Part shown: positions 11,771-32,029 of the stretch, piece after piece
Position numbering within the stretch: position 1 is the stretch's first letter
How the letters are laid out: each line of letters begins with the position of its first letter
Made by a program: the position numbers and the translations under genes
IMG/VR virus record: IMGVR_UViG_3300016669_000029
Coordinates: 1 to 32,029 of that record
Length of the DNA: 32,029 nt
Reading direction: 5' to 3' (one strand)
From: a virus
Lineage: Duplodnaviria > Caudoviricetes
The notes under the pieces: model-generated
Told to the model about the DNA's origin: nothing
Databases searched by the model: none
What the model saw: only the letters and a program-made list of their open reading frames with translations

Positions 11771-11776
11771 CCGGCC

Positions 11777-11798: not shown

Positions 11799-11813
11799 CC
11801 ACCCCAAGATCCC

Positions 11814-12098: not shown

Positions 12099-12105
12099 GA
12101 GCGCC

Positions 12106-13353: not shown

Positions 13354-13565
13354 CCGATACGCCCGTCTTCTACGACCACTACTGGGCCGGCGCCCCGACC
13401 ACCCTGGCGAAGGCCGTCGAGGGCTTCGAGAACGTCCTCGGGCCGGTGACGGTCGACGACTTCGCCATCGCCTGCGTCCGGGCGACCGAACCCCTCGAAC
13501 TTCCGAAGAACCTCAAGGACCGGCCCCAGGTCGGCCGCGCCGTGCTCGGGGTCTTCGCAGAGTAA
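13350..13565 (+). CDS. Hypothetical protein (71 aa)
   Basis: GTGA coupling to the upstream gene, with consistent codon usage. Confidence 0.65.
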   Translation: MTDTPVFYDHYWAGAPTTLAKAVEGFENVLGPVTVDDFAIACVRATEPLELPKNLKDRPQVGRAVLGVFAE

Positions 13566-13572
13566 CCCCACC

Positions 13573-13863
13573 ATGAACCTCTTCATCGACAGCCAGGCGG
13601 ACCTCGTGCCGCAGGGCGACCGGCTCGTCATCACGCGGCATCAGGAGATCCCGAGCGAATTCCTGGCCGGGCTGGCCGAGGAGCGGACCCGGACCCGGCT
13701 GAGGCCGGGCCAGGAGGTCAACCGGGTCGCCGCCGTGCCCGCCGTGATCGTCGACCAGTGGATGCGCCAGGGCTTCGACATCTTCCGCGAGTCGAACAAG
13801 GCCATCGTGGCTCGCCTCAAGGCCGAGCACCTCGACCACTTCGTGACGGCTCGGGGGGTCTGA
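13573..13863 (+). CDS. Hypothetical protein (96 aa), conserved-looking morphogenesis-region gene
   Basis: Tightly packed ORF containing VAAVPAVIVDQWMRQG. Confidence 0.7.
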   Translation: MNLFIDSQADLVPQGDRLVITRHQEIPSEFLAGLAEERTRTRLRPGQEVNRVAAVPAVIVDQWMRQGFDIFRESNKAIVARLKAEHLDHFVTARGV

Positions 13864-13864
13864 G

Positions 13865-14461
13865 ATGACCCTGGCCGAAGCCCGCGCCGCCTTCCTGGCG
13901 CGGCTCAACAGGTCGGACTGCGACGCCGCCCTGGCGGACAGCTTCCTGGGCGAGGGCATGCGGCGCGTCCAGCGCGAACTCCGCGCACCCTTCATGGAGC
14001 GGGTCCACTGGGTCGACGCCAAGACCCAGCCCATCGAGAGCATCGAGATCCCGGCCGACTACATCGAGGCCGTCGAGGTGCTCTGCGGCGGCCAGCCGCT
14101 GACCCGCGAGCCCTTCCGATCCCTGATGCGGGTCCCGGCCGCCGGCTGCCCCGGCCTGTGGGGCCGCTACCGGAGCACGCTCTACTTCCGGGGGGCGATC
14201 CCGACCGGCAAGCGGGTCGAGCTGCTCTACTACGGCAACTTCTCCGCGCTGCCCTCCGACAGTTCCGCGAACGAGCTGACCACCTCCGCGCCGGACCTTC
14301 TCATCTACGGGTCCCTCTCCGTGGCCGGCGACCACTTCGAGCACGACAAGCGCGCCGAGTGGGAGGCCCGCTACACTTCCATCCTGGCCCAGGTCTCCGA
14401 CCAGGCCGAGCGGGACGAGATCACGGGTGGCCCGATGGCCATCCAGCCCGCCTACTACTGA
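13865..14461 (+). CDS. Head-tail adaptor (tail tubular A-like) protein
   Basis: 198 aa, LNRSD N-terminus, IPADYIE, NELTTSAPDLLIYGSL pattern typical of podovirus adaptors. Confidence 0.75.
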   Translation: MTLAEARAAFLARLNRSDCDAALADSFLGEGMRRVQRELRAPFMERVHWVDAKTQPIESIEIPADYIEAVEVLCGGQPLTREPFRSLMRVPAAGCPGLWGRYRSTLYFRGAIPTGKRVELLYYGNFSALPSDSSANELTTSAPDLLIYGSLSVAGDHFEHDKRAEWEARYTSILAQVSDQAERDEITGGPMAIQPAYY

Positions 14462-17991: not shown

Positions 17992-18257
17992 TCGACCTCG
18001 GTGATGATCCCGTCGTGCTCCTCGGAAGTCAGGAGTTCCCACATCCGTCCGGAACGGCTCGGAGATGCCCGGCGCCGACACACCTCGGACCCGCCGCCAG
18101 GGAGCAGGACCGAGAGCACGGGGTGACGCGCGTCGGCCGAGTAAACAGTGAAGACCTCCGTGTGGTGCCAGCCCTGTCGAGCATGATGGAGCCAGCCGTC
18201 CAACCGACGATCAGAAGTGATCGGGTCTTCCGCATCCTCCTCGTACACGACGGCCAC
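17988..18257 (-). CDS. Hypothetical protein (89 aa), antisense to the lysis cassette
   Basis: GTG preceded by GAGGG. The stop overlaps the endolysin stop. Codon usage is atypical. Confidence 0.4.
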   Translation of the reverse strand: MAVVYEEDAEDPITSDRRLDGWLHHARQGWHHTEVFTVYSADARHPVLSVLLPGGGSEVCRRRASPSRSGRMWELLTSEEHDGIITEVD

Positions 18258-18292
18258 TTTGATACCCTCTGCACTATCCGTCAGGGGGAACC

Positions 18293-18481
18293 CTAGACCG
18301 GCGTCGTCTGCTGCGTCATCCACGCGAACAGCGCGAGGGCGCACACCACGCCCCAGATCAGCTGCTTCCGGCGGCTGGACCCGCGCCGACGCTCCACCCA
18401 GACGGCCAGCAGCCCAACCACCAGCATGGCAATGAAGGGGTGGCGCAAAGCCTCCCGGTTGATCGCCTCGAAGATCTCCAT
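18293..18481 (-). CDS. Small membrane protein (62 aa, two TM helices)
   Basis: Two hydrophobic helices separated by a basic loop (RRRGSSRRK). Confidence 0.6.
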   Translation of the reverse strand: MEIFEAINREALRHPFIAMLVVGLLAVWVERRRGSSRRKQLIWGVVCALALFAWMTQQTTPV

Positions 18482-18486
18482 AGTTG

Positions 18487-18540
18487 AAAAAATGCCCCTC
18501 TCCTCGACCCCTGATAGGGATCTGGGAGAGGGGCCTTTTT
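18487..18540. terminator. Bidirectional rho-independent terminator
   Basis: Stem GCCCCTCTCC (18494-18503) / GGAGAGGGGC (18525-18534) with an inner CCCT/AGGG pairing, an A6 tract on the left and a T5 tract on the right. It sits where the two genome arms converge. Confidence 0.8.
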
Positions 18541-18541
18541 G

Positions 18542-18928
18542 TCAATCGCAGGACGAGAACGAGGAGCCGCTGTCCGACGAGCTGGACGACCAACTGCTCC
18601 CGCTGTCGCTCCAGCTGGAGGACGAGCAGGAGGAGATGGAGGACGTCTCCACGCTCGGCTGGCTGTGCAGCACCGTGCCCATCACCATGCCCATCGCGAA
18701 GTCCGGCCCGCTGTCCCGCTCATAGTGGACCACGGTCGTCGCCGGCCGCGCGGAGGGCGCGGGGGACGGCGCCACGGGGATGGAGCGGCGGAACTCCGGG
18801 ACCGACCGCACGGGGCGCGGAGCGGGCGGCGGGGCCGGGCGCGGCGGCTCCTTCCGGACCGGCCGCCGGAACTTCCCGGCGACCTGGCTGCAGGCGGCAG
18901 CCGCCGCGACGAGGGCTGCGTGGATCAT
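18542..18928 (-). CDS. Hypothetical protein with Pro-rich middle and Ser-rich tail
   Basis: ATGA coupling to the upstream gene. It ends directly before the terminator with a low-complexity SSSSWSDSGSS tail. Confidence 0.6.
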   Translation of the reverse strand: MIHAALVAAAAACSQVAGKFRRPVRKEPPRPAPPPAPRPVRSVPEFRRSIPVAPSPAPSARPATTVVHYERDSGPDFAMGMVMGTVLHSQPSVETSSISSCSSSSWSDSGSSWSSSSSDSGSSFSSCD

Positions 18929-19134
18929 GCGGCCTTCTCCAGCGGGCGGGCGCGGCGGATCGCCACCACACGCTTCATGAGGTCGGCGGCGAGGGCTTCG
19001 GCCTGGGTGTCGGTGAGGCCAACGGCGGCCCGCGCCTTGCTCTCCCTGTTGAGGAGGTAGACGTCGCCCTCGAACGTCCAGACGCGCAGGGAGTCTCCGG
19101 GGACGCCCAGGTCATCGTACTTCGTCTCTTCCAT
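18925..19134 (-). CDS. Hypothetical protein (69 aa, MEETKYDDLG...)
   Basis: TGATG coupling to the upstream gene. It is the 3' part of track ORF 18925..19557. Confidence 0.65.
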   Translation of the reverse strand: MEETKYDDLGVPGDSLRVWTFEGDVYLLNRESKARAAVGLTDTQAEALAADLMKRVVAIRRARPLEKAA

Positions 19135-19466
19135 CACGCGCAGTCCTTCACGATGGGGGTCCCGGCGAGACCCTGGTTGATGACTTCGAAGGCTTCGGGG
19201 CTGTCGACCATGACCCGCGCCAGCCCGAGACTGAGGAGGGAGACGACCGTCTCCTCGTCCCGCCGGCCGACGCGGGTCACACCGCCAGCCTCCCAGACCG
19301 CGTGCAGCAGCTCGTGCAGCAGCGTCTCGGCCTGGACCTGGGGTGGGTTGTCGGGGTTCAGTTCGATGACCCCGGTATCGAGGTGGCAGAGGCCGTCGAG
19401 GGCCTTCCGCCGGTCTTCCGGGAGGGGCTGGACCACGTAGTGGCGGTGGCCCACCTTGATCCTCAT
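19134..19466 (-). CDS. Small HExxH metallopeptidase-like protein (ImmA/IrrE-like fold)
   Basis: GLC...I.L and ETLLHELLHAVW...EE motifs. Confidence 0.75.
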   Translation of the reverse strand: MRIKVGHRHYVVQPLPEDRRKALDGLCHLDTGVIELNPDNPPQVQAETLLHELLHAVWEAGGVTRVGRRDEETVVSLLSLGLARVMVDSPEAFEVINQGLAGTPIVKDCA

Positions 19467-19615
19467 TCGGGGATCTCCAGCAGCCGGGCGCGGGTCTCGC
19501 GGATCTCCTGCTGGATCTCGAAGAGAGCCGGCCCGGAGGCCTCCCGAGCGCGCGCATGGAGGGCGCGCAGCTCGTCGAGGATGTCCGCCACGATGGGGTT
19601 CGGGTGGCGGGTCAT
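19463..19615 (-). CDS. Hypothetical protein (50 aa)
   Basis: ATGA overlaps on both sides; helical sequence MTRHPNPIVADILDEL... Confidence 0.6.
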   Translation of the reverse strand: MTRHPNPIVADILDELRALHARAREASGPALFEIQQEIRETRARLLEIPE

Positions 19616-20028
19616 GCGGCCGTCTTCTCCGCGATGAGCGCCGAGGCCTGCCCCTTGAGGGGCCGGTCGTCGTTCAGCTTGCCGGCCGCCTTGGCGTCCA
19701 TGACGATGGCCATGCAGGCCGCGACATGCGCCAGGTGGTCGACCCCACTGTCCGAGGCGGTGTCCTCGCCGTCCCACCAGGCCAGCAGGTGGCGCAGCGC
19801 GGCGTCGTAGTAGACGGAGGCCGAGACCGTGTGCTCCCGCCAGTTCATCAGCCCGTACTTCCGCTCGCCGTCCTTCATGGCCTGCCCGATCTGCAGGATG
19901 GCCACGGGCGGGATGCAGCGGAGCGGCGGCTTGGTGAGGCCGATGCGGGTCTTGGGGTTGCCGTCCGGGTAGCCGTCCGGCGGCACGATGGCGTTCGGGT
20001 AGTCGCGCGCCATCAGGCCGGTGCCCAT
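19612..20028 (-). CDS. dATP/dGTP diphosphohydrolase-domain protein (DUF5664-like)
   Basis: NPK...KPPLRCIP, G..KYG..NW, YYDAALRHL..WWDGED..DSGVDHLAH motifs. Start is at 20028 (TGATG) or 20013. Confidence 0.85.
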   Translation of the reverse strand: MGTGLMARDYPNAIVPPDGYPDGNPKTRIGLTKPPLRCIPPVAILQIGQAMKDGERKYGLMNWREHTVSASVYYDAALRHLLAWWDGEDTASDSGVDHLAHVAACMAIVMDAKAAGKLNDDRPLKGQASALIAEKTAA

Positions 20029-20831
20029 CAGGCCGGTGCGGGGGCCTCCGCAGAGGAGGGACGGATCGAGACCCATGGATGTTCTCCTGCGGGCGCCCAG
20101 AGGCGGACCCGCTGCTGATGCTTGTCGAAGTCCCCGAACCGCAGGATGCGGGCGAGGCGAGCTGTCAGGAGGGCGAGCGCGGGGTCGACCTTCCGCGCGC
20201 GGTAGGTGGCCTCGACGCTCTGCCACATTGCAGAGAGGTGTAGTTTGCCGGCGAGCGCCGCCTCGGCCTTCTTCGGGCCGACATTGGGGCAGCCCCCGTA
20301 GCCATCCGCGCTGTCCCCCGTCAGGGTCTGGGTCATCCACACCCGGTCGGCCTCTCGCTCCGTGACGGTCACGGGCCAGCGGTCCTTGGCGGGGTTCAGG
20401 TGGATGCCCGGCAGCGTCCGCATGTCCTTGTCGGTGGACACGGCGACGGCGTCGCGGCCCAGCGGGCTGGTCAGGTAGAGGCCGATCAGGTCGTCGGCTT
20501 CGAGCCCGTCCACGGTGCGGGCCGGGAAGGCCTGTTCCAGGCAGGACTTGGCGAAGGGCAGGGCGACGGGTCGGACGACGCTCTTGCGGTTGGACTTGTA
20601 GGTCGGGCAGATGACCTTGCGGAAGTTCCCCTGGCCCGTCAGCAGGACCAGGGTCTGGTCGCAGCCGGCGGCCTCGGTCCAGGCGCGGGCGGTCTCCGTG
20701 ACGGATGCACGGACCTCGTCCTCGTTGAACCAGGGGTCGCACGGCTCATCGTTCCAGCCCCGCGTGTCGCGCTGGCACACCGCAGCCACGGTATAGGCCA
20801 CGATGTCGCCGTCGATCAGGGCGGTGGTCAC
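20028..20831 (-). CDS. 5'-3' exonuclease (T7 gp6-like)
   Basis: LIDGDIVAY, NFRK...YKSNR, LEADD, DKDMRTLPG and GDSADGYGGCPNVG motifs. Confidence 0.92.
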   Translation of the reverse strand: MTTALIDGDIVAYTVAAVCQRDTRGWNDEPCDPWFNEDEVRASVTETARAWTEAAGCDQTLVLLTGQGNFRKVICPTYKSNRKSVVRPVALPFAKSCLEQAFPARTVDGLEADDLIGLYLTSPLGRDAVAVSTDKDMRTLPGIHLNPAKDRWPVTVTEREADRVWMTQTLTGDSADGYGGCPNVGPKKAEAALAGKLHLSAMWQSVEATYRARKVDPALALLTARLARILRFGDFDKHQQRVRLWAPAGEHPWVSIRPSSAEAPAPA

Positions 20832-20841
20832 AGTCTGATGG

Positions 20842-21027
20842 TCACTCGCCCCGGCCGCTGGCCATCCGCACGATGCGCGCCACGATGACCCCGCCGATGA
20901 TCGCGGAGCCCACGATGGAGGCCAGGAAGACCTCCAGCAGGATCGAGCTGACGGACGCCATGACCATCCCGATGACGAGCATCGGAGTGATCGAGAGCAT
21001 CAGCAGCCAGGGCAGGGCGACCCTCAC
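20842..21027 (-). CDS. Small membrane protein (61 aa)
   Basis: Almost entirely hydrophobic with two TM segments; GTGA coupling to the TerB-like gene. Confidence 0.6.
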   Translation of the reverse strand: MRVALPWLLMLSITPMLVIGMVMASVSSILLEVFLASIVGSAIIGGVIVARIVRMASGRGE

Positions 21028-21470
21028 AGGCCGACCTGCGACAGGCTGAGACCCAGGGCGCTCGCCGCGCGGCGCAGGAAGGCCACCTCAGCCGGCTCGA
21101 TCTCGCCGTCCGCCTTGGCCGCCATCACGCCCATCCGCAGGATGGCGATGCGCTTCTCCTCGGAGGCGCCCTTGCGGCGGACGTCCTCCAGCTCCTTCAC
21201 GCAGGCGTCCTGGCCGATGTCCGTGTCGAACTCGCACTGGTCGGACAGCTCGCGGAACTTCGCCAGGAGCATCGACTGGTCGAACTGCTTGAGGATCGGG
21301 GAGACCTTGAAGCTGGCCAGCAGCTTGGTCTTCTCAGCCTGCTCCAGCTCGCCATCCGCGTAGGCGGTGCCGCACTGGATGGCGACCAGGGCTTCCGCCG
21401 TCTCCCGGTCGTTGAACTTGGAGACCTCGGCCTGGATGTCGGCCAGCTTGGACTTGAAGAAGTTCAGCAT
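21024..21470 (-). CDS. terB: TerB-family (tellurite resistance-like) protein
   Basis: Duplicated A-x-A-D-G-E-x-x-x-x-E motif (AYADGELEQAE, AKADGEIEPAE), 148 aa. Confidence 0.85.
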   Translation of the reverse strand: MLNFFKSKLADIQAEVSKFNDRETAEALVAIQCGTAYADGELEQAEKTKLLASFKVSPILKQFDQSMLLAKFRELSDQCEFDTDIGQDACVKELEDVRRKGASEEKRIAILRMGVMAAKADGEIEPAEVAFLRRAASALGLSLSQVGL

Positions 21471-21509
21471 AGTTCTGCTCTCTGCTTCTGTGCGAAGTAG
21501 TGTCGTCGA

Positions 21510-21698
21510 TCAGCGCGCGGCGATCTGGCCGAGGCGGGTCCGGTAGACCTTCTCGGTGCCGTCCTCGCGGACCTCGACCCAGGCGCCCTGCGGCGTCGCG
21601 GTGAGGCTCAGGAAGACGCCGCTGCGGCGCGGCATGCTGGCGCCACGGCCGGCGGTGGTGAAGGTGATCGCGTCGCCGGGGTTGAAGGCGGTGGACAT
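21510..21698 (-). CDS. Hypothetical protein (62 aa, SH3/KOW-like beta-rich)
   Basis: SD AAGGAG. First gene downstream of a promoter-like repeat; FNPGD start. Confidence 0.7.
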   Translation of the reverse strand: MSTAFNPGDAITFTTAGRGASMPRRSGVFLSLTATPQGAWVEVREDGTEKVYRTRLGQIAAR

Positions 21699-21734
21699 GC
21701 GGGTGGCTCCTTGGCCGGGGTGTGGAAGAGGGGA

Positions 21735-21782
21735 GGAGGCGCCCAGCGGGCACCCCCGTCATGTGGTGTCGTTTGTTGGACA
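21735..21782 (-). promoter_or_regulatory. Putative phage RNAP promoter plus 5' hairpin, copy 1
   Basis: 45/48 identical to 29337-29384; intergenic, directly after the DNA polymerase stop. Confidence 0.75.
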
Positions 21783-21790
21783 GCCGCCGC

Positions 21791-23722
21791 TCAGTGCGTG
21801 ACGGCCCAGTTGGGTCCGACCTTGAACTCGCCGCCCAGGTCGCACTGCAGGCCCAGCCGCTTGCCGGCCTCGTGGATCGCCTCGGAGAACAGCTCCCCGT
21901 ATTCCTCCGCGATCTCCGGGATGCACTCGGTCTGGGCTTCGTCATGCACGTTCGTGACGTAGGCGTAGTGTTCGCCGTGCCGCCAGCCGCGCTTGGGACC
22001 CCATTCGAACTCGACGATGCCGAGGGCCAGCTTCATGGCCGTCGCCTCGCCGTGCTGGAGGAGGCTCACCAGGGCCGCGTGCTTGGCCGCCACGGGCACC
22101 TGCGCGCCCCCGATGCCCACCACGTAGCCACGCTCGGCGCCGGTCGTCTGGACGTCCTCCAGCAGCCGGTCCAGGCCGGGCATGGAGGCGCCCAGCGCGT
22201 CGATGGCGCCCTGGCCGACCAGCTGCAGCACGTTCGCCGTCCGCTTGCCGTCCGCCCAGAGGTCGCGCAGGACCGGGTCGAGCGCCGGCACGTCCTCCAG
22301 CAGCTCCCGCACCGCGTCGCCTTTCCGCAGGTCGATCTTCTGCGGCATGTGCCGCTTCTGATGCTTGATGCGGTCTTCGTTGACGGTCAGGAACATCCGC
22401 TTCGGGAAGCAGCCGAAGACGCGCGCGTACTGGCAGGTCTTGGCACCGTCGCGGGTCACGAGACCCCACGGCTCCAGGCTTCTCAGGTTCAGCGTGTGCC
22501 CGTCCGTGCCCCTCGCCTTGTCGCCCGAGACGAGCTTCTCGGCGTAGACCCCGTTGTCGTAGCGGCAGAGGTAGTGCGCCAGGAAGCGCGCCTGGATCTC
22601 CTTGCCGTCGCAGCCCACCAGAACCCAGCCGGGGCGGGGGATGTAGAGGGAGCGGACCCGCTTGTCCTTGTCGACATTCGCGGTGTTCGGCTTGGAGTGC
22701 GTGCAGCGCCAGGTGATCGCGCCGAGCGTGTTGATGCGTCCGTAGACCCGGTCATCCGGCTGGATCAGCTGAAGCAGGCCCTGGGAGGTCTTGCTCTGCC
22801 CCACCAGCTGGCCCAGCAGCTTGGTCGTGCGGAAGTAGTCGCGGATCAGCAGCGGCCCTTCGCCGCCGATGCCCACCAGCTCGTCCTCGTCGAGCTTCGG
22901 CTTGCCGGCCGGGGTCAGCTTGGTCGGCTTCCAGCCCTCGCGTTGCAGCGCCTCGACGATCTGCTGCCGGGAGTTCAGGTTGATCTCCTGCTCCCAGGTC
23001 TTCACGTACTCGACGCCGGCCACGATGCCGCGCTTGGAGTTGTTCCGCTTGTAGACCTTGGTCTCCGACCGCTGGAGCGGCGGATACATATCCAGCAGCC
23101 GGGTCTTGGCGGCCTGCTGCTCGGCCAGGAGGTCCCCGTGCAGGCGCTCGGCCGCCGGGCGGTCGATCATGACGCCGTTCTGCTCCTGCATCGCCATGGC
23201 GTAGGCGAAGCGGTGCTCGGTGACCCACTGGTGGAGGCGCCGGTCGCCCGACCCCCGGCCCCATTCCATGACGTGCTTGACCCGATGCCAGAGGGTGCGG
23301 CCGGCGTGGATGTCCTGGCGGGAATAGTCCGCGAACTCGCGGGTCCAGACATCGTAGGGACCCTTGAAGGAGCCCTTCATGGTCCCGGTGCGGCGGCCCC
23401 AGGCCTCCAGCGAGTGGTTGCGCTCCTTGATCTCGGCCATGCGGGCCAGGACCAGGGTGTCGCGCACCTGCTCGAACCGGACGGTGCCGGGGTGGATCTT
23501 GTTGATGGCCCAGAGGTCGAACCCCAGGCCGTTGTGGAAGACGAGCTGCCCGGCGTCGCGGAGCCGCTCCAGGCCCTCCTTCAGGGGCCGGTCGCAGAAC
23601 TCCACGTCGCCATAGAGCAGGGCCTCGTCGCCGTCAGCGGTGCCCAGCTGGATGCACCAGAGCTTGGTCATCGCCTTCAGCAGATTGTCGGTCTCGCAGT
23701 CCGCGATGAGGGTCTCGTTCAT
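21791..23722 (-). CDS. DNA polymerase family A (T7 gp5-like) with 3'-5' exonuclease domain
   Basis: Exo motifs DCET, HNGLGFD and YSRQD; polymerase motifs A (VGCDGKEIQAR), B (RDGAKTCQYARVFG) and C (VHDE). SD GGAG. Confidence 0.95.
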   Translation of the reverse strand: MNETLIADCETDNLLKAMTKLWCIQLGTADGDEALLYGDVEFCDRPLKEGLERLRDAGQLVFHNGLGFDLWAINKIHPGTVRFEQVRDTLVLARMAEIKERNHSLEAWGRRTGTMKGSFKGPYDVWTREFADYSRQDIHAGRTLWHRVKHVMEWGRGSGDRRLHQWVTEHRFAYAMAMQEQNGVMIDRPAAERLHGDLLAEQQAAKTRLLDMYPPLQRSETKVYKRNNSKRGIVAGVEYVKTWEQEINLNSRQQIVEALQREGWKPTKLTPAGKPKLDEDELVGIGGEGPLLIRDYFRTTKLLGQLVGQSKTSQGLLQLIQPDDRVYGRINTLGAITWRCTHSKPNTANVDKDKRVRSLYIPRPGWVLVGCDGKEIQARFLAHYLCRYDNGVYAEKLVSGDKARGTDGHTLNLRSLEPWGLVTRDGAKTCQYARVFGCFPKRMFLTVNEDRIKHQKRHMPQKIDLRKGDAVRELLEDVPALDPVLRDLWADGKRTANVLQLVGQGAIDALGASMPGLDRLLEDVQTTGAERGYVVGIGGAQVPVAAKHAALVSLLQHGEATAMKLALGIVEFEWGPKRGWRHGEHYAYVTNVHDEAQTECIPEIAEEYGELFSEAIHEAGKRLGLQCDLGGEFKVGPNWAVTH

Positions 23723-23752
23723 GGTGCTCCATCAGGATGCATACTGGTGTTG

Positions 23753-24220
23753 TCAGAGGGTGCCGTAGAACCTGACCAGCCGCGAGAAGTCGTCCACGTC
23801 CCGCCAGTCGCGGGTCGCGGCGAGCGTCCGCAGGTCGGGCAGGGACAGGGCGCGCTTCATGCTGTTGGCCCGCGCGGAGACGATCAGGCAGTTGCCCGGC
23901 GTATAGCCGCCCGCGTTGTCGATGCGGTCCACGGTGGCCGAGGCGAAGTTCTGCCCCTGGCCGAACAGCCCGCCGATCTGGAGGGGAATGCCCAGGACCG
24001 GGCAGACGACCGGCAGGTTGCGCTCCAGCCAGTCGACCGTCAGGTCGCAGGCCAAGCCCTTCCGGCGGGCGCGGTAGGCGGCATTGGCTCGGGTCAGCTG
24101 CGCCCAGCGGCGCCGTGTGCTGACGCCGGGACCCTGGCCCAGATAGGCGCGGGGCCGGGCACTAGAAAGGCGGGTCGTCGTCGGCGCGAGCGCCGGCAGC
24201 AGTGCTCCGTCGAGGGGCAT
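23753..24220 (-). CDS. HNH-like (His-Me finger) endonuclease-related protein
   Basis: RARRKGL, CPVLGIPL and TVDRIDNAGGYTPGNCLIVSARANSMK patterns. Overlaps the helicase 3' end by 59 nt. Confidence 0.75.
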   Translation of the reverse strand: MPLDGALLPALAPTTTRLSSARPRAYLGQGPGVSTRRRWAQLTRANAAYRARRKGLACDLTVDWLERNLPVVCPVLGIPLQIGGLFGQGQNFASATVDRIDNAGGYTPGNCLIVSARANSMKRALSLPDLRTLAATRDWRDVDDFSRLVRFYGTL

Positions 24221-25256
24221 TCTTCTCTTCTTTCGGTTGATCGGGGAGCACGCACTCGACCATTCGGCCCGTGCGGCGGTCGTAGAAGGTGTGCCCCATG
24301 ACCCCGGTGAATCCGGTGTCGCGGGACTTCAGGGAGCGCCAGCGGGCGACGTCGCGCTTGCTGATGGACCGCAGCTCGCCGTCCACGGTGGTGACCTCGA
24401 TGTCGTCCTCGTCCTGCTGGTTCCGCTCCATGGCGATCACGGCGTCGGACAGTTGGGCGATGGACTGGGACCCGCGCAGATCCGCGAGGGTGACCCGGCC
24501 GCCTTCCTCGTGGGACTTCTCGCCGCCGCTTACCCGCTTGAGGTGGCAGACGGCGTGCAGCGTGATCCCGGTGTTCTCCACCAGGGCGCGCAGCTGGGTC
24601 ATGAGGCGGTCGATGGTGGTGCGCTCGTCGGCGGCCTTGCCGTCCGCCTGAGCCGACATGTCCGAGACCACGATGGAGATGTGGTCGAGGATGATGGTCT
24701 TCGCGCCGCAGCCGACCGCGAGGTAGCGGAGCTTCGAGACGAGGTCGCCGCCGTCCAGGGAGCCGAAGTGATCGAAGGTCCAGAAGCGGCCGTTGGCGAC
24801 CGTCTCCTCGAAGGCCCTGCGGATCGCCGGGTCCGACTTGTCGAAGCCGCCCAGCATCAGCCGGCGGTTCAGGTGGAGCCCCACATAGCCGAGGCCCGTC
24901 TTGCCGACATTCTCCTCCAGCCGCACATCCGCGACCGGCATGCCGTGGTGCATCAGGTCGTAGTAGGCGACCTCCCGCACGGCGGTGGACTTGCCCATGC
25001 CCGAGCCCGAGACCCACATGATCAGCCGGCCGGGATAGGCGCCGCCGATCCCCTTCTCGGTCCCGTTGAGGAAGGTGAAGCAGGTCTCGCGGCCGGGGAT
25101 GGCCGCCGCCATCATGGCGTCCCAGAGATCCTTCCCCTCGACGATCCCGCCGGGACGCCAGGCGCGGGCCTCGTAGACCGCCGAGGTGATCTTCTTGAGG
25201 TAGCTCGGGTCTCGCTTCGCGGCCTGCAGCAGGTCGCTGGCGTCCTTCATGTTCAT
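24162..25256 (-). CDS. DnaB/T7 gp4-like helicase, starting with the final TOPRIM motif (C-terminal half of a split primase-helicase)
   Basis: N-terminal KDASDLL, then linker RPGGIV, Walker A SGSGMGKST, LEE, IILDHISIV, VCHLKR, DLRGSQSIAQLSD and LKSRDTGFTG. Start is at 25256 or 25250. Confidence 0.92.
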   Translation of the reverse strand: MNMKDASDLLQAAKRDPSYLKKITSAVYEARAWRPGGIVEGKDLWDAMMAAAIPGRETCFTFLNGTEKGIGGAYPGRLIMWVSGSGMGKSTAVREVAYYDLMHHGMPVADVRLEENVGKTGLGYVGLHLNRRLMLGGFDKSDPAIRRAFEETVANGRFWTFDHFGSLDGGDLVSKLRYLAVGCGAKTIILDHISIVVSDMSAQADGKAADERTTIDRLMTQLRALVENTGITLHAVCHLKRVSGGEKSHEEGGRVTLADLRGSQSIAQLSDAVIAMERNQQDEDDIEVTTVDGELRSISKRDVARWRSLKSRDTGFTGVMGHTFYDRRTGRMVECVLPDQPKEEKNAPRRSTAAGARADDDPPF

Positions 25257-25265
25257 TTTTTGTTC
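25251..25265. promoter_or_regulatory. Alphaproteobacterial LexA (SOS) box
   Basis: GTTC-ATTTTTT-GTTC, an exact GTTC-N7-GTTC with an AT-rich spacer, overlapping the helicase start codon. An extra GTTC lies at 25268-25271. Confidence 0.7.
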
Positions 25266-25277
25266 TCGTTCTGCGAT

Positions 25278-25493
25278 CTATACGGGTTTGCGGAGACGCC
25301 GGAGACCGCGAAGTTCCCAGACCAGGGTGATCGGGTCGCCGGTCTGCGTGCGCTGAACGGGGTAGGTTCGCAGACCGGAGGCATGGAGTTTTGCTTCGAT
25401 GGTCCGGATGACATTCTCGACGTAGCCCTCCGGGGCCACGGTCAGCTCCAGCGAACTGATCGTGCGCTGACAGAAGAAGCGGAGGTCGCTCAC
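25278..25493 (-). CDS. Hypothetical protein (71 aa) inside the primase/helicase break
   Basis: The GTG start overlaps the primase stop (GTGA), and the ORF fills almost the whole gap (VSDLRFFCQRTISSLELTV...). Confidence 0.6.
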   Translation of the reverse strand: MSDLRFFCQRTISSLELTVAPEGYVENVIRTIEAKLHASGLRTYPVQRTQTGDPITLVWELRGLRRLRKPV

Positions 25494-26194
25494 TGAGGCG
25501 TCTCCACGATTTTCACCTTGCCGGGGGTCAGGAGGCCGGCGCACCGCTGGACCGCCTCGCGGCCATGCTTGTCGGCGTCGAACCAGAAGACCACGCTGTC
25601 GTAGCTCTCCAGCCACTCCAGCGACTGCTTGATGTCCTCCACCGCGCCCTTGCAGCCGCGCTTGATGGACACCACGGGCCAGGTGAGGTTGAAGGCCTGG
25701 GCGACGCTCGCGGCGTCGAACTCGCCCTCGGTCACCACGACGCGCTTGCCGCCGGACTTCCAGAGGTGCTGGCCGAACAGCCCTGCCTTCTTCGGAGACC
25801 CGATGAAGGGCATGTTCTCCTTGTCGCCGGGGTAGCGCATCTTCTGCGCCACCACGTCGAGGCCGGTGGCCGCGTCCCGGTAGTCGAACAGCGAGACCGG
25901 GTTGCCCTTGCTGTCGAGACCCACCTTGATGCCGAACTTCCGGCAGGTGTCCTCGCTGAGGTTCCGCGACGGGAGCGCGCGGAACTCGCCTTCGATGAAG
26001 TCCTCCATCACGGTCCTCTTGCGGTGGCTGGTGCTGGGTCCCGCGCCGTCCAGCCAGTGGTGGGCGTCGCAGGAGAAGCAGTGGGTGTGGCGCCGGCCGT
26101 CGTCGTGCTCGTACTCGGCGCAGGCATCGGAGGACCCGCAGTCCTCGCAGGGTCCCTTGCCGACGAGCCAGCTCTCGCCCTCGCCGGCCTCCAT
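25490..26194 (-). CDS. DNA primase, N-terminal half (Zn-binding domain plus most of TOPRIM) of a T7 gp4-like protein
   Basis: CEDC...HCFSC zinc motif, QKMRY, LFGQ, VTEGEFDA and WFDAD. Ends at GKVKIVETPQ. TGATG coupling at the start. Confidence 0.92.
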   Translation of the reverse strand: MEAGEGESWLVGKGPCEDCGSSDACAEYEHDDGRRHTHCFSCDAHHWLDGAGPSTSHRKRTVMEDFIEGEFRALPSRNLSEDTCRKFGIKVGLDSKGNPVSLFDYRDAATGLDVVAQKMRYPGDKENMPFIGSPKKAGLFGQHLWKSGGKRVVVTEGEFDAASVAQAFNLTWPVVSIKRGCKGAVEDIKQSLEWLESYDSVVFWFDADKHGREAVQRCAGLLTPGKVKIVETPQ

Positions 26195-26379
26195 CACGCC
26201 ACCCGCCACGTCAGCGTCAGGGCGCTCTTCGTGGCTCCCACGCGGAGGGCGTCCAGCGCCTTGGCGTCGTCCGGCTGGGGCAGGGCGGCCACCACCGCGT
26301 GGTTCGGGTAGGCGGCCTTGAGCGCCGCGACGACCTCCCGCATGGAGAAGACCGCCTCGCGCGTGATCGTGCTCTGCAT
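26194..26379 (-). CDS. Hypothetical protein (61 aa)
   Basis: TGATG coupling on both sides. Confidence 0.7.
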   Translation of the reverse strand: MQSTITREAVFSMREVVAALKAAYPNHAVVAALPQPDDAKALDALRVGATKSALTLTWRVA

Positions 26380-26738
26380 CAGTGATGCTCCGGGCGGGTC
26401 TGGGGGATGATCACCAGGCCGTTTGCCGGGTGGTCGAAGAGCAGCACCGTGCCGGCCGGCTGGGCGTCCAGCAGGGCCAGCACGTCGGGCAGCTCCAGCT
26501 GGTTCGGGTCATGGATCAGCCCCTCGTCGAAGGGCTCATCGGCATAGTCCGGGTGCTCGTGCCCGGTCTGCCGCTCCCAGCTCTCGCCCAGGTCGTCGAA
26601 GAGATCCTGCATCACGCCGGGCCGCAGGGGCTCACCGATGATCTGCTCGATGTCTTCGTCGGCCAGGTGGGCCAGCAGGGTGATGAGCGCGTCCGTCTGC
26701 TCCAGGGTCAGCGTGTGACCCATGATCGGCGTGTGCAT
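26379..26738 (-). CDS. Hypothetical acidic protein (119 aa)
   Basis: Packed ORF with consistent codon usage. Confidence 0.7.
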   Translation of the reverse strand: MHTPIMGHTLTLEQTDALITLLAHLADEDIEQIIGEPLRPGVMQDLFDDLGESWERQTGHEHPDYADEPFDEGLIHDPNQLELPDVLALLDAQPAGTVLLFDHPANGLVIIPQTRPEHH

Positions 26739-26754
26739 GCAGGTCTCTCTGAGG

Positions 26755-27183
26755 TCAGGGGATGGGGAGGATGGTGACCGTCACGCCGGGCGCTTCGCCG
26801 GGCTCGGCCCACCGCTTGGAGACCGCCAGGGCGATCACCTGCGTGTCGTCCTTCCAGAACCGCTGCGTCTTCGTGATCGCGTCGAGGTAGGTCTTCGCGA
26901 AGTTGTCGACGTCGCCGCGCGGGGCCGGCAGCTTGGTGGTCTTCGGGCGGGGCGAGGCGCATTCCACCAGCACGGCGCAGGGACCCGTGAAGGGTTCCGT
27001 CGCGGTGGACTGCTGGAAGAACTCGCGCTGGCACTCACCCGCGTGGGTCGAGTATTCGCGCGGCATGAAGGCAATGCCCGTCTTGGTGAAACGGGGGCGC
27101 GGGGCCGGCACCGGAGTGCAGGCCACACGCAGGCTGATGGCGGCGCCCTGGAGGGCACCGCGCATCGTCTTCAGGAGATCCAT
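26755..27183 (-). CDS. rusA: RusA-like Holliday junction resolvase
   Basis: PVPAPRPRF and DVDNFAKTYLDAI...WKDDTQV motifs. ATG lies 4 nt after the SSB stop. Confidence 0.88.
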   Translation of the reverse strand: MDLLKTMRGALQGAAISLRVACTPVPAPRPRFTKTGIAFMPREYSTHAGECQREFFQQSTATEPFTGPCAVLVECASPRPKTTKLPAPRGDVDNFAKTYLDAITKTQRFWKDDTQVIALAVSKRWAEPGEAPGVTVTILPIP

Positions 27184-27187
27184 CGGC

Positions 27188-27841
27188 TCAGAACGGGATG
27201 TCGTCGTCGAGGTCCGCCTTCGGGCGCGAGGAGCGGGTCTCGCCTCCGCTACGGTTCGAAGTGGTGTTGTCGTCGGCCGCGTCGTCGCCGTCGAAGCCGC
27301 CCTCGATCTCGTCGAAGCCGGACCCGGCCTGGCGCTTCTCGACCAGCTGCAGCCCGTAGATGCGGGCCGAGATGCCGAAGACGTCGATCTCGGTCTCGAC
27401 GACCCTCCCGTTGACCCGCTCCTTGACCTTGTCCTTCTTGGTCCAGGGCACGAGGGCCAGCTTGATGCGCGCCCGGTCGCCACCCCGGCTGAAGTTCTCG
27501 GGGGCGATCTCGCGGTTGCGCGCGTTGAAGCACTCGGGCTGCTTCGTGGACTGGGCCGTGAAGAAGACCATGCCGGCGTACTTCGAGTCGGCCTTGCCCT
27601 CCTTGAAGGGGAAGTCGACGGCCTCGGCGTCCGGGTAGTGGGCCTTGGCTTCCTTCTCGAACTCGGCGCGCAGCTTGGCCAGCTCGGGGTCGTCGCCCTC
27701 GAAGACCAGGCTGATCTTGTACTTGCCGTTGGGCTTCCAGCTCGCGCCCTCGGGGGCCTCGGTGTCCGGCTTGGCGACGTGCGCGTTGCCGGTGCTGGCG
27801 ATGGGGGTGAAGATGACGCGGTAGCGGGGCGCCTTGGCCAT
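27188..27841 (-). CDS. Single-stranded DNA-binding protein (T7 gp2.5-like)
   Basis: KPDT...GKYKISL, PFKE, FTAQS, GLQLVE and an acidic tail ending DDDIPF. SD GGAGG. Confidence 0.85.
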   Translation of the reverse strand: MAKAPRYRVIFTPIASTGNAHVAKPDTEAPEGASWKPNGKYKISLVFEGDDPELAKLRAEFEKEAKAHYPDAEAVDFPFKEGKADSKYAGMVFFTAQSTKQPECFNARNREIAPENFSRGGDRARIKLALVPWTKKDKVKERVNGRVVETEIDVFGISARIYGLQLVEKRQAGSGFDEIEGGFDGDDAADDNTTSNRSGGETRSSRPKADLDDDIPF

Positions 27842-28254
27842 CAATGGGCCTCCTCGGTGGTGGACGGAACGACCTTGGCGGCCTCACCCAGGGTGAAGAG
27901 CGTCTCGCTCAGGGTCGGGGGCAGGGTGCCGAGCGCGTAGTGGCGCTTGGCGGCGAGCAGCTCGCCGGGCTGGCGGTCGCTCATGACCTCGGCCAGGGTC
28001 GCTAGGACCCGGCGGAAGTCCTCGGGGTAGCTGGGGCTCTCCGGAGCGCCGACCGCAGCGCGGCCCATCTCCAGCAGCCGCAGCAGGGCATGCGCGGTGC
28101 CCATCGTCGGGCCGATCAGGTCCTCGGCCTTGGGGTTCTCGCCCAGGGCTTCGAGGCCGGCGGCACGGCCGATGGCGTAGGTGGTGAAGTCCGCGCTGAT
28201 GCGGAGCGCCTGGCGCGCCTCGGGAGGCAGCGCGGCGACGAAGGAAGTGCTCAC
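27841..28254 (-). CDS. Hypothetical protein (137 aa)
   Basis: GTG with SD GGAG, first gene after promoter-like repeat copy 2, coupled to SSB. Confidence 0.7.
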   Translation of the reverse strand: MSTSFVAALPPEARQALRISADFTTYAIGRAAGLEALGENPKAEDLIGPTMGTAHALLRLLEMGRAAVGAPESPSYPEDFRRVLATLAEVMSDRQPGELLAAKRHYALGTLPPTLSETLFTLGEAAKVVPSTTEEAH

Positions 28255-28278
28255 AGTGATCTCCAGGGGGATGGTCTC

Positions 28279-28324
28279 GGAGGGGCCGTGGGCACCCCCG
28301 TCATGTGGTGACGTTTGCTGGACA
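28279..28324 (-). promoter_or_regulatory. Putative phage RNAP promoter plus 5' hairpin, copy 2
   Basis: Same core as the other copies (TGTCCAGCAAACG[T]CACCACATGACGGGGGTGCCCAC on the - strand). Overlaps the last codons and stop of the oxygenase gene. Confidence 0.75.
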
Positions 28325-28918
28325 CGGGGTCGCGAGCTGGGCCAGCTCCTGCTGCCGCAGCGCCTCGCCGGCCTCGTCGTAGAGGAAGGTGAGGTAGGCG
28401 TAGCGGGCGCCTTCCTCGACGGGCGTCACGCGGTGCTCCAGGGAGCAGCTGAAGACGATGGCCGTGCCGGACGGCTCCCAGAAGACCTTGTCCGGGCCGA
28501 ATTCCGGGAACTCCAGGGCGCCGCCCCAGAAGGCGTCATTCAGGATGACGCTGAGGGCGAACTTGCGGTGCCGGGTGCCGGGCAGCAGGTCGTCCTTGTG
28601 GGCGGCGAAGTGTCCGCCGCGCGCGTACCGGGCGACCATGTGGCGCTCGATACGGGTCACGTCGAACTGGAAGGCCTGCCGGACTTTCGGTAGGACCCTA
28701 TCTATGATGGCCGAGGAAGCAGCCCTGGCCAGATCCTCACCGAGATAGTGGTCGGTGCGGACCTTGAGCCGGGGCTCGATGCGCTCCCCGATGCGGCCAT
28801 CCTCCTGCGGCCACATGAAGCCGCTCTCCCGCGTCTCCCCCGCGTCCAGCGCCCGGCACATGGCCGAGCAGAGGTCCGGGGAGAAGGCATCGGGGATGAT
28901 GAGGATGGGCGCGGCCAT
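28301..28918 (-). CDS. 2OG-Fe(II) oxygenase (prolyl-hydroxylase-like)
   Basis: H-K-D...H facial triad (HFAAHKDD, LEHRVTPV), RKFALSVILN, GGALEF and G.RY. TGATG coupling. Confidence 0.9.
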   Translation of the reverse strand: MAAPILIIPDAFSPDLCSAMCRALDAGETRESGFMWPQEDGRIGERIEPRLKVRTDHYLGEDLARAASSAIIDRVLPKVRQAFQFDVTRIERHMVARYARGGHFAAHKDDLLPGTRHRKFALSVILNDAFWGGALEFPEFGPDKVFWEPSGTAIVFSCSLEHRVTPVEEGARYAYLTFLYDEAGEALRQQELAQLATPCPANVTT

Positions 28919-29313
28919 CAGGCGAAGGCCTGGAGGGCGGCGATCAGGGCCGGGATGCGGTTCCGCTGGATGAAGTAGCCGTCCAGCGTGTCTTCCGGGT
29001 CGCCCGTCACGACGCAGCCCGTGGCATCCTCGTCCGGGACCACGTAGATGTCGCCGGCCTCCAGACTGACCCGGAACTTGCGGACGATCTCCACGGTGAG
29101 GCCATCGGGGAGGGCGGTCGCGGTCGCCTCGTAGAGTTCCGCATCCTCCTCGGCTAGGACACCTGCCTGGGCACCGCCCTCGAAGGACACATAGGGGAAC
29201 TGCGAGCTGTCCTGCGCGATCACGAGGATCGTGCCGATGGACACGTCGTCGTTGAAGCACGAGCGGTGGAGGGAGCGGACCACCACGCGGTCGCCCTTCT
29301 TGAACTTCGCCAT
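28918..29313 (-). CDS. Hypothetical protein (131 aa, MAKFKKGDRVVV...)
   Basis: SD AGGAG. First gene after promoter-like repeat copy 3; KOW/SH3-like start. Confidence 0.75.
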   Translation of the reverse strand: MAKFKKGDRVVVRSLHRSCFNDDVSIGTILVIAQDSSQFPYVSFEGGAQAGVLAEEDAELYEATATALPDGLTVEIVRKFRVSLEAGDIYVVPDEDATGCVVTGDPEDTLDGYFIQRNRIPALIAALQAFA

Positions 29314-29336
29314 AGTCGTCTCCTGGGTTGGAACCC

Positions 29337-29384
29337 GGAGGCGCCCCGTGGGCACCCCCGTCATGTGGTGTCGTTTGCTGGACA
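29337..29384 (-). promoter_or_regulatory. Putative phage RNAP promoter plus 5' hairpin, copy 3
   Basis: Intergenic, directly downstream of the RNAP gene, where T7-like phages place their first phage promoter. Confidence 0.78.
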
Positions 29385-29389
29385 CGATA

Positions 29390-29417
29390 TCCGATACTGT
29401 TCGAACTAGTGTAGTTA
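29390..29417 (-). repeat. 28-nt bipartite direct repeat, copy downstream of the RNAP catalytic gene
   Basis: TAACTACA-CTAGT-TCGAACAGTATCGGA. The 15-nt core is identical to 31166-31180. Confidence 0.8.
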
Positions 29418-31157
29418 GGAGAAAAAGAACTCGGCCGAGTGGACCTGCTCGATGTCCAGCGTGCCGCGCGCCGGGGGCTCCGGGATGTCGACGCCAGGGG
29501 CCTGGGCGCGGAAGTCCTCGGCCAGGCGTTCCAGCTGGTTGACCCGGTACTGCTCCACGAAGGTCTGGCGCAGGATGGCCGAGAGCGCGGTCGTGTGGCC
29601 GCAATGGACCCCGTAGCTGTCGTGGATCATCGCGAAGTCCCGGATGCCCTGCTGCTCGGCGCACATATTGATGGTGGCCGCCATGTGGGCCGCGTCGAAG
29701 GAGTGGACGATCTGCGGGGCCGAACCCATGGCCTGCTTGCCGGCGTCGATCCGGCCGTCCGGGATCTCCTCGTGGAGCACGACGCGGCCCGTCAGGGTCC
29801 GGACGAGCTTCCGCTCGGTCTCGTGGTAGGCCTGCCGGCACCGGCTGCCCATCGGGGTCGTCCAGTCCATCGGCAGCCCGGCCTCGCCCATGCGGGTCGC
29901 GCACACCTGAACCCACGCCATGATGTTCTTGGCGGCGACCACGGTGCCCGACAGGGCGTCCACCAGCACGTCCCGGAAGTAGGCGGACGTCTTGCGGATA
30001 TCGAGGTCGCTCTCGGGCACCACGCCCTCCTCGATCAGCCCCTTCTGGATGCCGCCCTCGGTGATGCCGTAGGGGGTGGCCAGCACGGTGCGCTTCACGG
30101 TGTTCCGGTTGACGTGGCCGTACCAGACCACCGCCTCGGGCACGCCCTTGGCGGCGTCGCGGGCGACGATCTCGCGGGCCAGCTTGGCGACCTCCTCGTA
30201 GCAGTCCTGCCGATCCAGCCCGGCCAGCAGGTTGGTCGCGCGGGCGCCGATGGGGTCGAGCCCCATGGCGGACAGGTGCTGCAGCCCGTTGCAGGTGCCG
30301 TCGAGCGGGCAGGGGAGGTGCGAGACGAAGTCCTCGCGGTGCTGGGCGCGCTGCGCCTGGGCCATCTCCAGGGCGGTCGCGAGGAAGCCCCAGGGCTCCT
30401 CCACGCCCTTGCCGTTGTCGGCGCGGACCCACCACCGCTCCCACCGCAGCGGGTCGGCGGCGATGGCCGCGAACAGCTCGGCATTGCTGTCGGCCCAGGC
30501 GAAGCGGTCGTCCAACGGCAGCTTGTCCAGGCCGTAACAGTTGGCCGCCCGGATGCAGAGCCAGTAGTAGCCCGTCTTGCCCAGCGGCACGCCATCCGCG
30601 AAGTGCATCAGGGACTTCTGGATGTCGCTGCCCTGCGGGGTCAGGCCGCCGGCCGCGTGGATGTAGCGGCGCAGGCGGAAGTCGTGCAGCCACACGAAGT
30701 AGAAGCGCGGGTGCTCCTCCATGAAGTAGGCCGTCTCCATGGCCTTCTCGAAGACCATCCGCCGGCCGCGCCGGGCGTCGTTCGCCTTGTAGATCCGGGC
30801 GTTGGCGGCGCGGACCCGGCGCTTCTCCTCGTCCGACATGGCGTTCCAGGCGGCTTCCTCGGTCCTCGCCGGGGCGCCCAGCAGGGTCCGGGGCGGGACC
30901 GGGTGCTCGCCCTCGTCGGGCCGCGCCACGGGCCAGCGCCCGCGCGGCTCGAACATGGTGGAGGTCTGGGCGAGCAGGTCGCGGGCCACGTCCAGGACTC
31001 CGCGGTTCAGCCCCCAGGCCGTCGCCTGGAGCCGGTTGGTCGCCATCAGGTCGCGGTCGGAGATGGGCTTGCCGGGCAGCCCGGAGGTATGGGCGAACAT
31101 GCCGTGCAGGATCGGGGACGTCTTGTGCAGCACGTAGCCGCCAGAGAGGTTCTGCAT
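29415..31157 (-). CDS. T7-like single-subunit RNA polymerase, catalytic (C-terminal) part
   Basis: Motif A LDGTCNGLQH, motif B RNTVKRTVLATPYG, motif C MIHDSYG and C-terminal FFFS. It has its own SD (GGAG, 7 nt spacer) and begins at QNLSGGY. Confidence 0.95.
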   Translation of the reverse strand: MQNLSGGYVLHKTSPILHGMFAHTSGLPGKPISDRDLMATNRLQATAWGLNRGVLDVARDLLAQTSTMFEPRGRWPVARPDEGEHPVPPRTLLGAPARTEEAAWNAMSDEEKRRVRAANARIYKANDARRGRRMVFEKAMETAYFMEEHPRFYFVWLHDFRLRRYIHAAGGLTPQGSDIQKSLMHFADGVPLGKTGYYWLCIRAANCYGLDKLPLDDRFAWADSNAELFAAIAADPLRWERWWVRADNGKGVEEPWGFLATALEMAQAQRAQHREDFVSHLPCPLDGTCNGLQHLSAMGLDPIGARATNLLAGLDRQDCYEEVAKLAREIVARDAAKGVPEAVVWYGHVNRNTVKRTVLATPYGITEGGIQKGLIEEGVVPESDLDIRKTSAYFRDVLVDALSGTVVAAKNIMAWVQVCATRMGEAGLPMDWTTPMGSRCRQAYHETERKLVRTLTGRVVLHEEIPDGRIDAGKQAMGSAPQIVHSFDAAHMAATINMCAEQQGIRDFAMIHDSYGVHCGHTTALSAILRQTFVEQYRVNQLERLAEDFRAQAPGVDIPEPPARGTLDIEQVHSAEFFFS

Positions 31158-31165
31158 TCTGAAAC

Positions 31166-31193
31166 TCCGATACTGTTCGAGGTGTTGTACTTA
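31166..31193 (-). repeat. 28-nt bipartite direct repeat, copy inside the RNAP split
   Basis: TAAGTACA-ACACC-TCGAACAGTATCGGA, overlapping the SD of the catalytic gene. Confidence 0.8.
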
Positions 31194-31207
31194 CGAGGCG
31201 CGGCGGG

Positions 31208-32029
31208 TCAGGCCGCCAGGGCGGGCTCCGCGTAGGCCCAGGGGATGGGCGGGATGAGCATCGGCAGCATGGCCGGGCGGGCCAGCTCCGCGCGGGTGTT
31301 GGAGTCCTCCATCTGCTCGACCGCGTAGTCGGTCAGGAGGAGGCACTGCGGGCGCAGGTGCGCGGGACCCGGCCCGGCCTGGGCCATGCGGAACCACCAG
31401 GGGAGGGGCTCGCCGGCCTTCGTCGGACCGTGCGGGGCGGCGGCGACCAGGGCGCTCGCCAGGATCTCGCCCACCTGGGTCGTGGCCTCCGGGTTGGCGT
31501 GCCAGGGGATCGACCGCTCGATCTCCAGGCGCTTGCACAGGCGCGACCACGCGCGGCGGTCGGGCTCCGGGTTGGCCCGCTGGAACATCCGGACGAGGTC
31601 GGCCCGCTCCTTCGGGGCGTCCTTGCCGGTGCCTGCCGCCACCCAGGCGTCGTGGTCGGATTGGTCGCGCAGCGCGGCGCTGACCCGCTTGCCGTACCAG
31701 GGCAAGGTCTGGCCGAGCAGCTCCTCGCCCACCGGCCCGGCGCGCAGGGCGGCGCTCACCGCGACAACGGCGAGGACTTCCGACTCGAAGTTCAGCAGGC
31801 GGTTCCAGGCTGGCGAGCGGCGCTCGGTGGTCGCCTTGGTCGCGGCCTCCAACCAGCGTTCGAGAACGTCGGCCACGGGCCGGACGGTCTGGACGAGTGC
31901 CCGGCGGCCCGAGGGCAACTCGTGCGGGTCCAGCCGTGCGGCATCCTTGCGGAACTTCTTGACGGCGAGGTTGGTGGCATCGACTTCCCACAGCTGCTGC
32001 CGGGTCAGGTCGAACGCATCGGTGGACAT
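31208..32029 (-). CDS. T7-like RNA polymerase N-terminal domain encoded as a separate gene
   Basis: 273 aa helical protein starting RQQLWE and ending RPAMLPMLIPPIPW, equivalent to T7 SPMFQPCVVPPKPW, then a 9-residue tail and TGA. Confidence 0.85.
   Translation of the reverse strand: MSTDAFDLTRQQLWEVDATNLAVKKFRKDAARLDPHELPSGRRALVQTVRPVADVLERWLEAATKATTERRSPAWNRLLNFESEVLAVVAVSAALRAGPVGEELLGQTLPWYGKRVSAALRDQSDHDAWVAAGTGKDAPKERADLVRMFQRANPEPDRRAWSRLCKRLEIERSIPWHANPEATTQVGEILASALVAAAPHGPTKAGEPLPWWFRMAQAGPGPAHLRPQCLLLTDYAVEQMEDSNTRAELARPAMLPMLIPPIPWAYAEPALAA

Follow-up and report, generated by a model that had tools for sequence, protein, structure and literature searches.

The RNA polymerase (RNAP) of phage T7, of the T7-type single-subunit polymerases (Pfam PF00940 + PF14700), is a single chain, gp1, in which the C-linker spans residues 251-296 and the hinge residues 258-266 according to the available text of PMC3961267. 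Some members of this family are known in two pieces. RNAPII of phage N4 is a natural heterodimer of gp15 (269 amino acids, aa) and gp16 (404 aa), and the accessible part of PMC4496689 places its cut after the thumb and the DX2GR motif, both of which lie on gp15. A T7-like polymerase fragmented in two is also reported, in the portion of Chen et al. 2019 at hand (PMC6811365), for the HTVC019Pvirus group III pelagiphages and uv-Fonsiphage-EPL. In addition, T7 RNAP has been divided by engineering, and co-expressed fragments can restore activity (Segall-Shapiro 2014, PMC4299498, as excerpted). Here we describe another two-gene polymerase of this family, in a phage of the Caudoviricetes represented by IMG/VR record IMGVR_UViG_3300016669_000029. 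The whole record, 32,029 nucleotides (nt) long, was analysed and is called the window below; both polymerase genes lie on its minus strand. The likely explanation, drawn from sequence comparisons and structure models, is that two separately started genes, cut at T7 positions 280/282, encode proteins that would assemble into a stable heterodimer able to initiate and to elongate, with a short motif of the intervening gap (motif A) as the enzyme's own promoter. The polymerase probably works as T7 RNAP does, but it is not single-subunit, and it is of neither the N4 nor the pelagiphage type.

The N-terminal subunit gene (31208..32029, minus strand) encodes 273 aa equivalent to about T7 RNAP 36-280, and ends in the hinge and a PMLPMLIPPxPW segment, its C-terminus being PMLIPPIPWAYAEPALAA followed by TGA. 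Beyond an intergenic gap of 50 nt (31158..31207), the catalytic subunit gene (29415..31157, minus strand) encodes 580 aa corresponding to T7 RNAP 282-883, with the thumb, palm, fingers and specificity loop. It begins MQNLSGGY in a different frame and has a Shine-Dalgarno (SD) word of its own, GGAG at 31165..31168, read directly from the sequence 7 nt ahead of the ATG. This layout bears out an earlier note, made from the letters of the window alone, that had read the locus as a T7-type polymerase in two genes. Profile alignments to T7 gp1 stop at T7 280 for the N-half and begin at T7 282 for the C-half; the note's further claim that essentially nothing is lost at the junction therefore holds, and the cut lies in the C-linker, behind the hinge and the conserved P266 and P270. 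Its in-frame TAA in the gap is present (31193-31191, read directly) but is not conserved, since 31193 is altered in the assemblies of two other runs (X3 and X5), and thus carries no weight. The N-half matches Pfam RPOL_N at E 5e-5, under the curated cut-off, and aligns by hhalign over T7 36-280 (prob 93, E 2.7e-7); searched alone against PDB sequences it gave no match. The C-half matches RNA_pol at E 3e-97, and the two halves match PHROG 414 at positions 6-245 and 279-816. The catalytic residues D286, K355, Y363, H512 and D513 of the C-half align with T7 D537, K631, Y639 and H811/D812. On the minus strand the contig opens with the first ATG of the N-half; this start is matched by relatives.

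The split layout is common to a large clade of mostly uncultured phages, as judged from their sequences. A protein search with the C-half scored 8,000 rows without DNA context, and among the best 120 of its 249 passing matches 104 are shorter than 620 aa, the other 16 being fused forms of 808-845 aa. An own start of the M-x-GGY type is found in 97 of the 104 short matches, the other 7 starting later, and the near-length N-half matches (6/6) end 2-12 aa past PPxxW. Loci with their DNA were fetched by likeness, duplicates included, and their counts are not prevalences; the survey of fused forms is bounded by the lengths searched. Among 235 fetched records with a C-half match, 39 are split at the same boundary, 166 are fused, 6 are broken elsewhere, 23 are truncated and 1 is without upstream DNA. 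Whether the split recurs, as the earlier note had asked, is answered by the same cut in 28 distinct loci with DNA. Their gaps range from -4 to 1,685 nt, with the three frames represented 10, 6 and 12 times, and stop and start overlap in three of them (gaps -4, -4 and -1). An SD-like word precedes the C-half in 21 of the 28, compared with 10 of 114 fused loci at the corresponding position. Long gaps contain unrelated genes, including those for Bro-N proteins; such antirepressor-like genes stand between the halves in two distant lineages (L001:753-1604 and L096:9221-9901). Relatives of the two halves were also sought by single-protein locus scans of viral contigs, which returned none for either; in cultured phage records the N-half had no match and the C-half matched at about 33-37% only.

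Other breaks of the polymerase were also seen. In the P0012 cluster (P0134, P0136, P0137), close relatives of the C-half come in further pieces of 291 + 285 aa or 291 + 204 aa; this break adjoins the catalytic Asp motif on several contigs and may be an intron or a third split. In L009:282-2905 and L114, which appear to be the same element, the break falls in the thumb region and leaves pieces of 431 + 440 aa, stop to stop.

The history of the split was traced in a 291-row tree of C-halves (FastTree). All 123 split rows sampled (97 proteins and 26 loci, some of them duplicates) fall in one clade with support of 0.946, which also contains 7 unclassified and 25 fused rows. Split and fused states require 10 changes on this tree, against a mean of 92 when shuffled. 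A hand-picked subset of 68 rows recovers the clade in IQ-TREE at 99 in the Shimodaira-Hasegawa-like approximate likelihood ratio test (SH-aLRT; a quick method, no bootstrap), and at least six changes of state are forced by the starred branches of that subset. The loop from the W to GGY has five residues in 107 of the 129 fused forms measured outside the clade. In the nested fused forms it has 8-43 residues (24 of 25 measured), and at least 13 in 16 of them. These long and variable linkers are likely to be re-fusions through the former gap. The linkers of 8-10 residues resemble the 8-residue loop of L088, which belongs to the fused sister group, and several independent splits at the same loop are therefore possible on the sequence evidence.

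The junction is crossed in one piece by contigs from three other studies (runs X3, X5 and X6), which differ from the window at 65-92 letters, and these independent assemblies dispose of the concern that it might be an assembly artefact. Their indels within the two-gene stretch occur only in the gap, at 31192 and 31197; the gap absorbs these and several substitutions of relatives, and 31158-31180 is untouched in X3 and X5 among the changes listed. Codons altered by the same listed changes are synonymous in 23 of 31 cases in the N-half (8 non-synonymous) and in 15 of 23 in the C-half (8 non-synonymous), where about one site in four would be expected to be synonymous. This pattern indicates that both halves are under purifying selection. 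The earlier note had allowed for close relatives that are all fused and halves that show relaxed selection; instead, the same cut occurs in relatives and both halves carry a synonymous excess. A decayed prophage gene or an assembly artefact would suit a record that is a 32-kb partial element with its edge at the first ATG, and six other loci are indeed broken elsewhere. This reading is rejected, with next to no probability left to it, on the spanning assemblies, the synonymous excess in both halves, the same cut throughout a deep clade and catalytic residues that are invariant in 123/123 split C-halves. The conserved cut, the selection on both halves and these invariant residues lend good support to the idea of a natural two-chain enzyme.

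The two reading frames might still yield one fused protein through frameshifting, ribosome bypass, splicing or protein splicing. The gap of 50 nt equals the length bypassed in T4 gene 60, and three loci have overlapping stop and start. For bypass, however, a matching landing codon after the in-frame TAA was not found and the gap has no hairpin (z +1.34). The tails, of a few residues, are too short for inteins, the Rfam scan of the window gave no match, and the dedicated SD word of 21/28 split loci points to separate starts. Since gap lengths vary from -4 to 1,685 nt, every frame occurs and some gaps enclose genes such as Bro-N, frameshifting, bypass and splicing are excluded as a general mechanism, and a single fused product is highly improbable. 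The class of fractured genes (split intein, intron, homing endonuclease) was rejected on the 50-nt gap, the short tails, the lack of an Rfam match and the scan of gap ORFs (open reading frames), which found no intein or endonuclease families.

Structure models bear on what the separate N-terminal subunit does. The N-half model, with a predicted local distance difference test (pLDDT) score of 90.9, matches T7 chains at E 4e-7 (Z 11.7-12.0), and in a wide structure search the yeast, T7 and human enzymes rank first. Its template modelling (TM) score is 0.60-0.68 against T7 elongation complexes (top ten rows), compared with 0.42-0.46 against intermediate complexes and 0.43 against the promoter complex 1cez. 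The C-half model has a pLDDT of 92.6, with residues 1-9 below 50 and disordered when folded alone. G6 and G7 of its GGY are at least 90% conserved among 79 C-halves, and a GGY that is conserved yet disordered alone hints that it may need the partner. The P266/P270 hinge and the PPxxW segment remain on the N-half, the most conserved part of which is the tail (P252, P256, M257 and P261). In the enzyme proposed here, the conserved N-subunit tail (P266, P270, PPxxW) would dock on the catalytic subunit beside the GGY strand, so that the cut would only open a surface loop and the hinge would still work. A side observation concerns the catalytic chain itself (29418-31157, minus strand): its near clade has DFRLR for DxRGR (residue 162) and Q for the usual N before VHSFD (residue 482), and among the 123 split C-halves L occurs in 23 at the first position and Q in 10 at the second.

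The earlier note had gone further, and saw in the N-terminal domain a possibly dissociable initiation subunit. Taken to its end, the N-subunit would be a sigma-like factor that serves initiation and, once the polymerase has escaped the promoter, dissociates or is exchanged; elongation would then fall to the catalytic subunit alone. The N-half is a separate gene, often with other genes between, and its sequence has diverged more rapidly than that of the C-half, with a mean column identity of 28% against 47% (computed on different sequence sets). Moreover, the cut falls within the C-linker, which changes shape on escape in the T7 account available to us. Nevertheless, the N-subunit retains the hinge and the tail that is its most conserved part, its model takes the elongation arrangement, and subdomain H of the T7 N-terminal domain forms part of the RNA channel in elongation (PMC3961267, available text). 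The repeated fused forms within the clade also indicate that a covalent link is tolerated. A released initiation factor is thus quite unlikely; the elongation-like model, the conserved tail and the role of subdomain H favour a stable heterodimer.

Compared with T7 gp1, the window shares the domain order, the catalytic motifs, the hinge prolines and the C-terminal aromatic tail. T7 differs in its one chain, its 5-residue loop from W to GGY, the lack of an annotated T7 promoter inside gene 1, and its head genes, which here are SU10-type. N4 RNAPII, offered as a precedent by the earlier note, stands as a heterodimeric enzyme of the family, but it is cut elsewhere, after the thumb in the accessible description. 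Unlike N4 gp15, the thumb and DFRLR (159-163) are on the C-half here, and in place of the truncated N-terminal domain of N4 there is a full-length N-half of 273 aa, aligned over T7 36-280; PHROG 2051 (401 positions, which fits the length of N4 gp16) aligns with the C-half only from its residue 195 onwards. The nearer precedent is the pelagiphage polymerase, for which the portion of Chen et al. 2019 at hand states no cut point, mechanism or motif; the cut point was read from HTVC025P only (MH598799.1). Like the window, HTVC025P has two genes, gp09 and gp12 (329 + 558 aa), with the cut in the same linker region; two small genes lie between the halves, and the phage is temperate, as here. Unlike the window, where GGY opens the C-half, HTVC025P keeps GGYY on the N-half and begins its C-half about 10 residues later, and it stands outside the clade, near T7 (in the SH-aLRT 99 tree, flagged for odd composition). 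These differences make it likely, on the sequences compared, that HTVC025P is a convergent split about 10 residues away. A break after GGY like the pelagiphage type was also seen in a third lineage (L069:1998-4450), where it may be a frameshift error. The literature searched, to which subscription papers and the Chen 2019 figshare supplements did not belong, held no description of this clade, its cut, the re-fusions or the gap motif, and the available text of PMC11880802, PMC11475235, PMC10386132 and PMC10747016 contains nothing on this split.

T7-type polymerases start transcription at a cognate promoter of about 23 bp. The gap carries motif A (31166..31197, core 31167-31180, minus strand), which overlaps the SD word and is the candidate cognate phage promoter. 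A second exact copy, at 29390..29421 on the minus strand, follows directly after the stop of the catalytic gene, the position at which T7 has phi1.1A. Two looser copies downstream are also on the minus strand, one at 27245..27276, near the end of the single-stranded DNA (ssDNA)-binding gene and ahead of RusA, and an intergenic one at 21481..21512, directly ahead of the TerB-like gene. A count of the motif gave 3 matches against 0.16 expected. The 48-nt repeat proposed earlier as the template for transcription (repeat B) is absent from the gap, which carries this different motif. Among the split loci, 3 with overlapping genes were excluded from the motif test; a co-directional copy occurs in the gap of 15 of the remaining 23 (whole gap, at least 14 of 18), compared with 0/23 on the opposite strand and 0/109 in fused junctions. 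The sequence after the C-half varies between loci, yet a copy of it recurs in the locus's own gap in 14/26, in a test that used other loci and random windows as controls. Five whole records show the copies concentrated in the early region and oriented for the most part in the direction of transcription. Taken together, the odds are slightly in favour of motif A being a cognate phage promoter, in which case the enzyme would transcribe the gene of its own catalytic subunit. A first round of transcription would come from upstream, the resulting polymerase would then amplify that gene's output, and the gap may have become an insertion place for early genes.

Several observations weigh against this account of a heterodimer with its own promoter. 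The elongation-like shape of the N-half may be predictor bias. The T7 bisection found tolerated seams at 67-74, 160-206, 301-302, 564-607 and 763-770, with none at 280-282 and the nearest at 301-302 (PMC4299498, in the part available). Motif A is missing from 8/23 gaps; it also stands ahead of the N-half in 10/21 split loci, and in 17/100 fused ones, and few copies precede structural genes in the five whole records. The likeness of the post-gene motif to the T7 promoter is not significant (p>0.05 in 25/26 loci; p=0.15 in the window). No promoter relic was significant in the linker DNA of 11 fused loci out of 14 (best p=0.05 and 0.08; rows L050 and L166 were mis-anchored). Repeat B surpasses motif A in conservation and, slightly, in likeness to T7 (9/17, p=0.046).

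A less likely but serious alternative keeps the heterodimer, takes motif A for a regulator binding site or an RNA element, and makes repeat B the promoter. Repeat B occurs on the minus strand at 29337..29384, 28277..28324 and 21735..21782, where it is a rival promoter candidate or an RNA leader with a GC hairpin (z -2.16), and its three co-directional copies before genes are identical at 34-35/35. Motif A is degenerate, and its likeness to the T7 promoter falls short of significance. Furthermore, HTVC025P has as its post-gene motif a perfect palindrome with 7-bp arms, directly after the polymerase stop (L251:6925-6957), with copies near 258 and 3731. Within the clade, on the other hand, motif A is directional and not palindromic (0/15), it varies between loci in the manner of cognate promoters, and in several loci it lies 2-6 nt past the C-half stop, like T7 phi1.1A. 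A sigma-70 scan of 18000-32029 found 0 sites, and among the RNA runs searched for the locus none usefully contained it.

Other genes of the element place the polymerase in its surroundings. The portal, capsid and adaptor genes (6990-14461, plus strand) are of the SU10 type and stand beside the T7-type polymerase and primase/helicase. Among the five whole split-polymerase records the SU10 capsid occurs in G003 only, which suggests that this polymerase module is paired with virion modules of various kinds. The primase (239 aa) and helicase (364 aa) are separate ORFs at 24165-26209 on the minus strand, about 240 nt and a small ORF apart, and both match the T7-type primase/helicase family. Accessory genes for a TerB-like protein (21024-21470) and a 2-oxoglutarate and Fe(II)-dependent (2OG-Fe(II)) oxygenase (28301-28914) lie in the early/middle region, on the minus strand.

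Halves 91-97% identical to those of the window are found at adjacent accessions in two genomes of Roseomonas mucosa, and the exact proteins of the window, including the 273-aa N-half, are also called on a contig of 196,813 nt, which fits a prophage. The N-halves in R. mucosa are annotated as 'hypothetical protein', so that the clade is easily missed. Named hosts of relatives include Devosia, Roseibium, Asaia, Variovorax and Rhizobacter. Host housekeeping genes stand directly upstream of the N-half in L081, L082, L083, L084, L086, L089 and L102, which places the N-half gene at or near the prophage edge, and an integrase lies upstream of it in L012 and L181. L086 and L090 are two copies of one split-polymerase element, carried by a single chromosome in opposite orientations.

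Why would a polymerase be kept in two pieces? It is conceivable, although unlikely, that the split is a regulatory device, with an own promoter before each half and an N-subunit that is limiting and exchangeable; the pair would then form an autocatalytic AND gate and a sharp switch of the prophage into lysis, which lineages repeatedly leave by re-fusing. The clade may also supply orthogonal polymerases for AND-gate circuits that are two-part by nature, divided at a site that the T7 bisection did not recover. For the biology of the family, it would offer natural cases of a T7-type polymerase whose refolding N-terminal domain forms a chain of its own while the hinge is intact. They make it testable whether promoter escape requires a covalent link and whether the N-terminal domain remains bound in elongation, with close split and fused sister pairs (P0027 vs P0050, P0106 vs L192) as natural controls.

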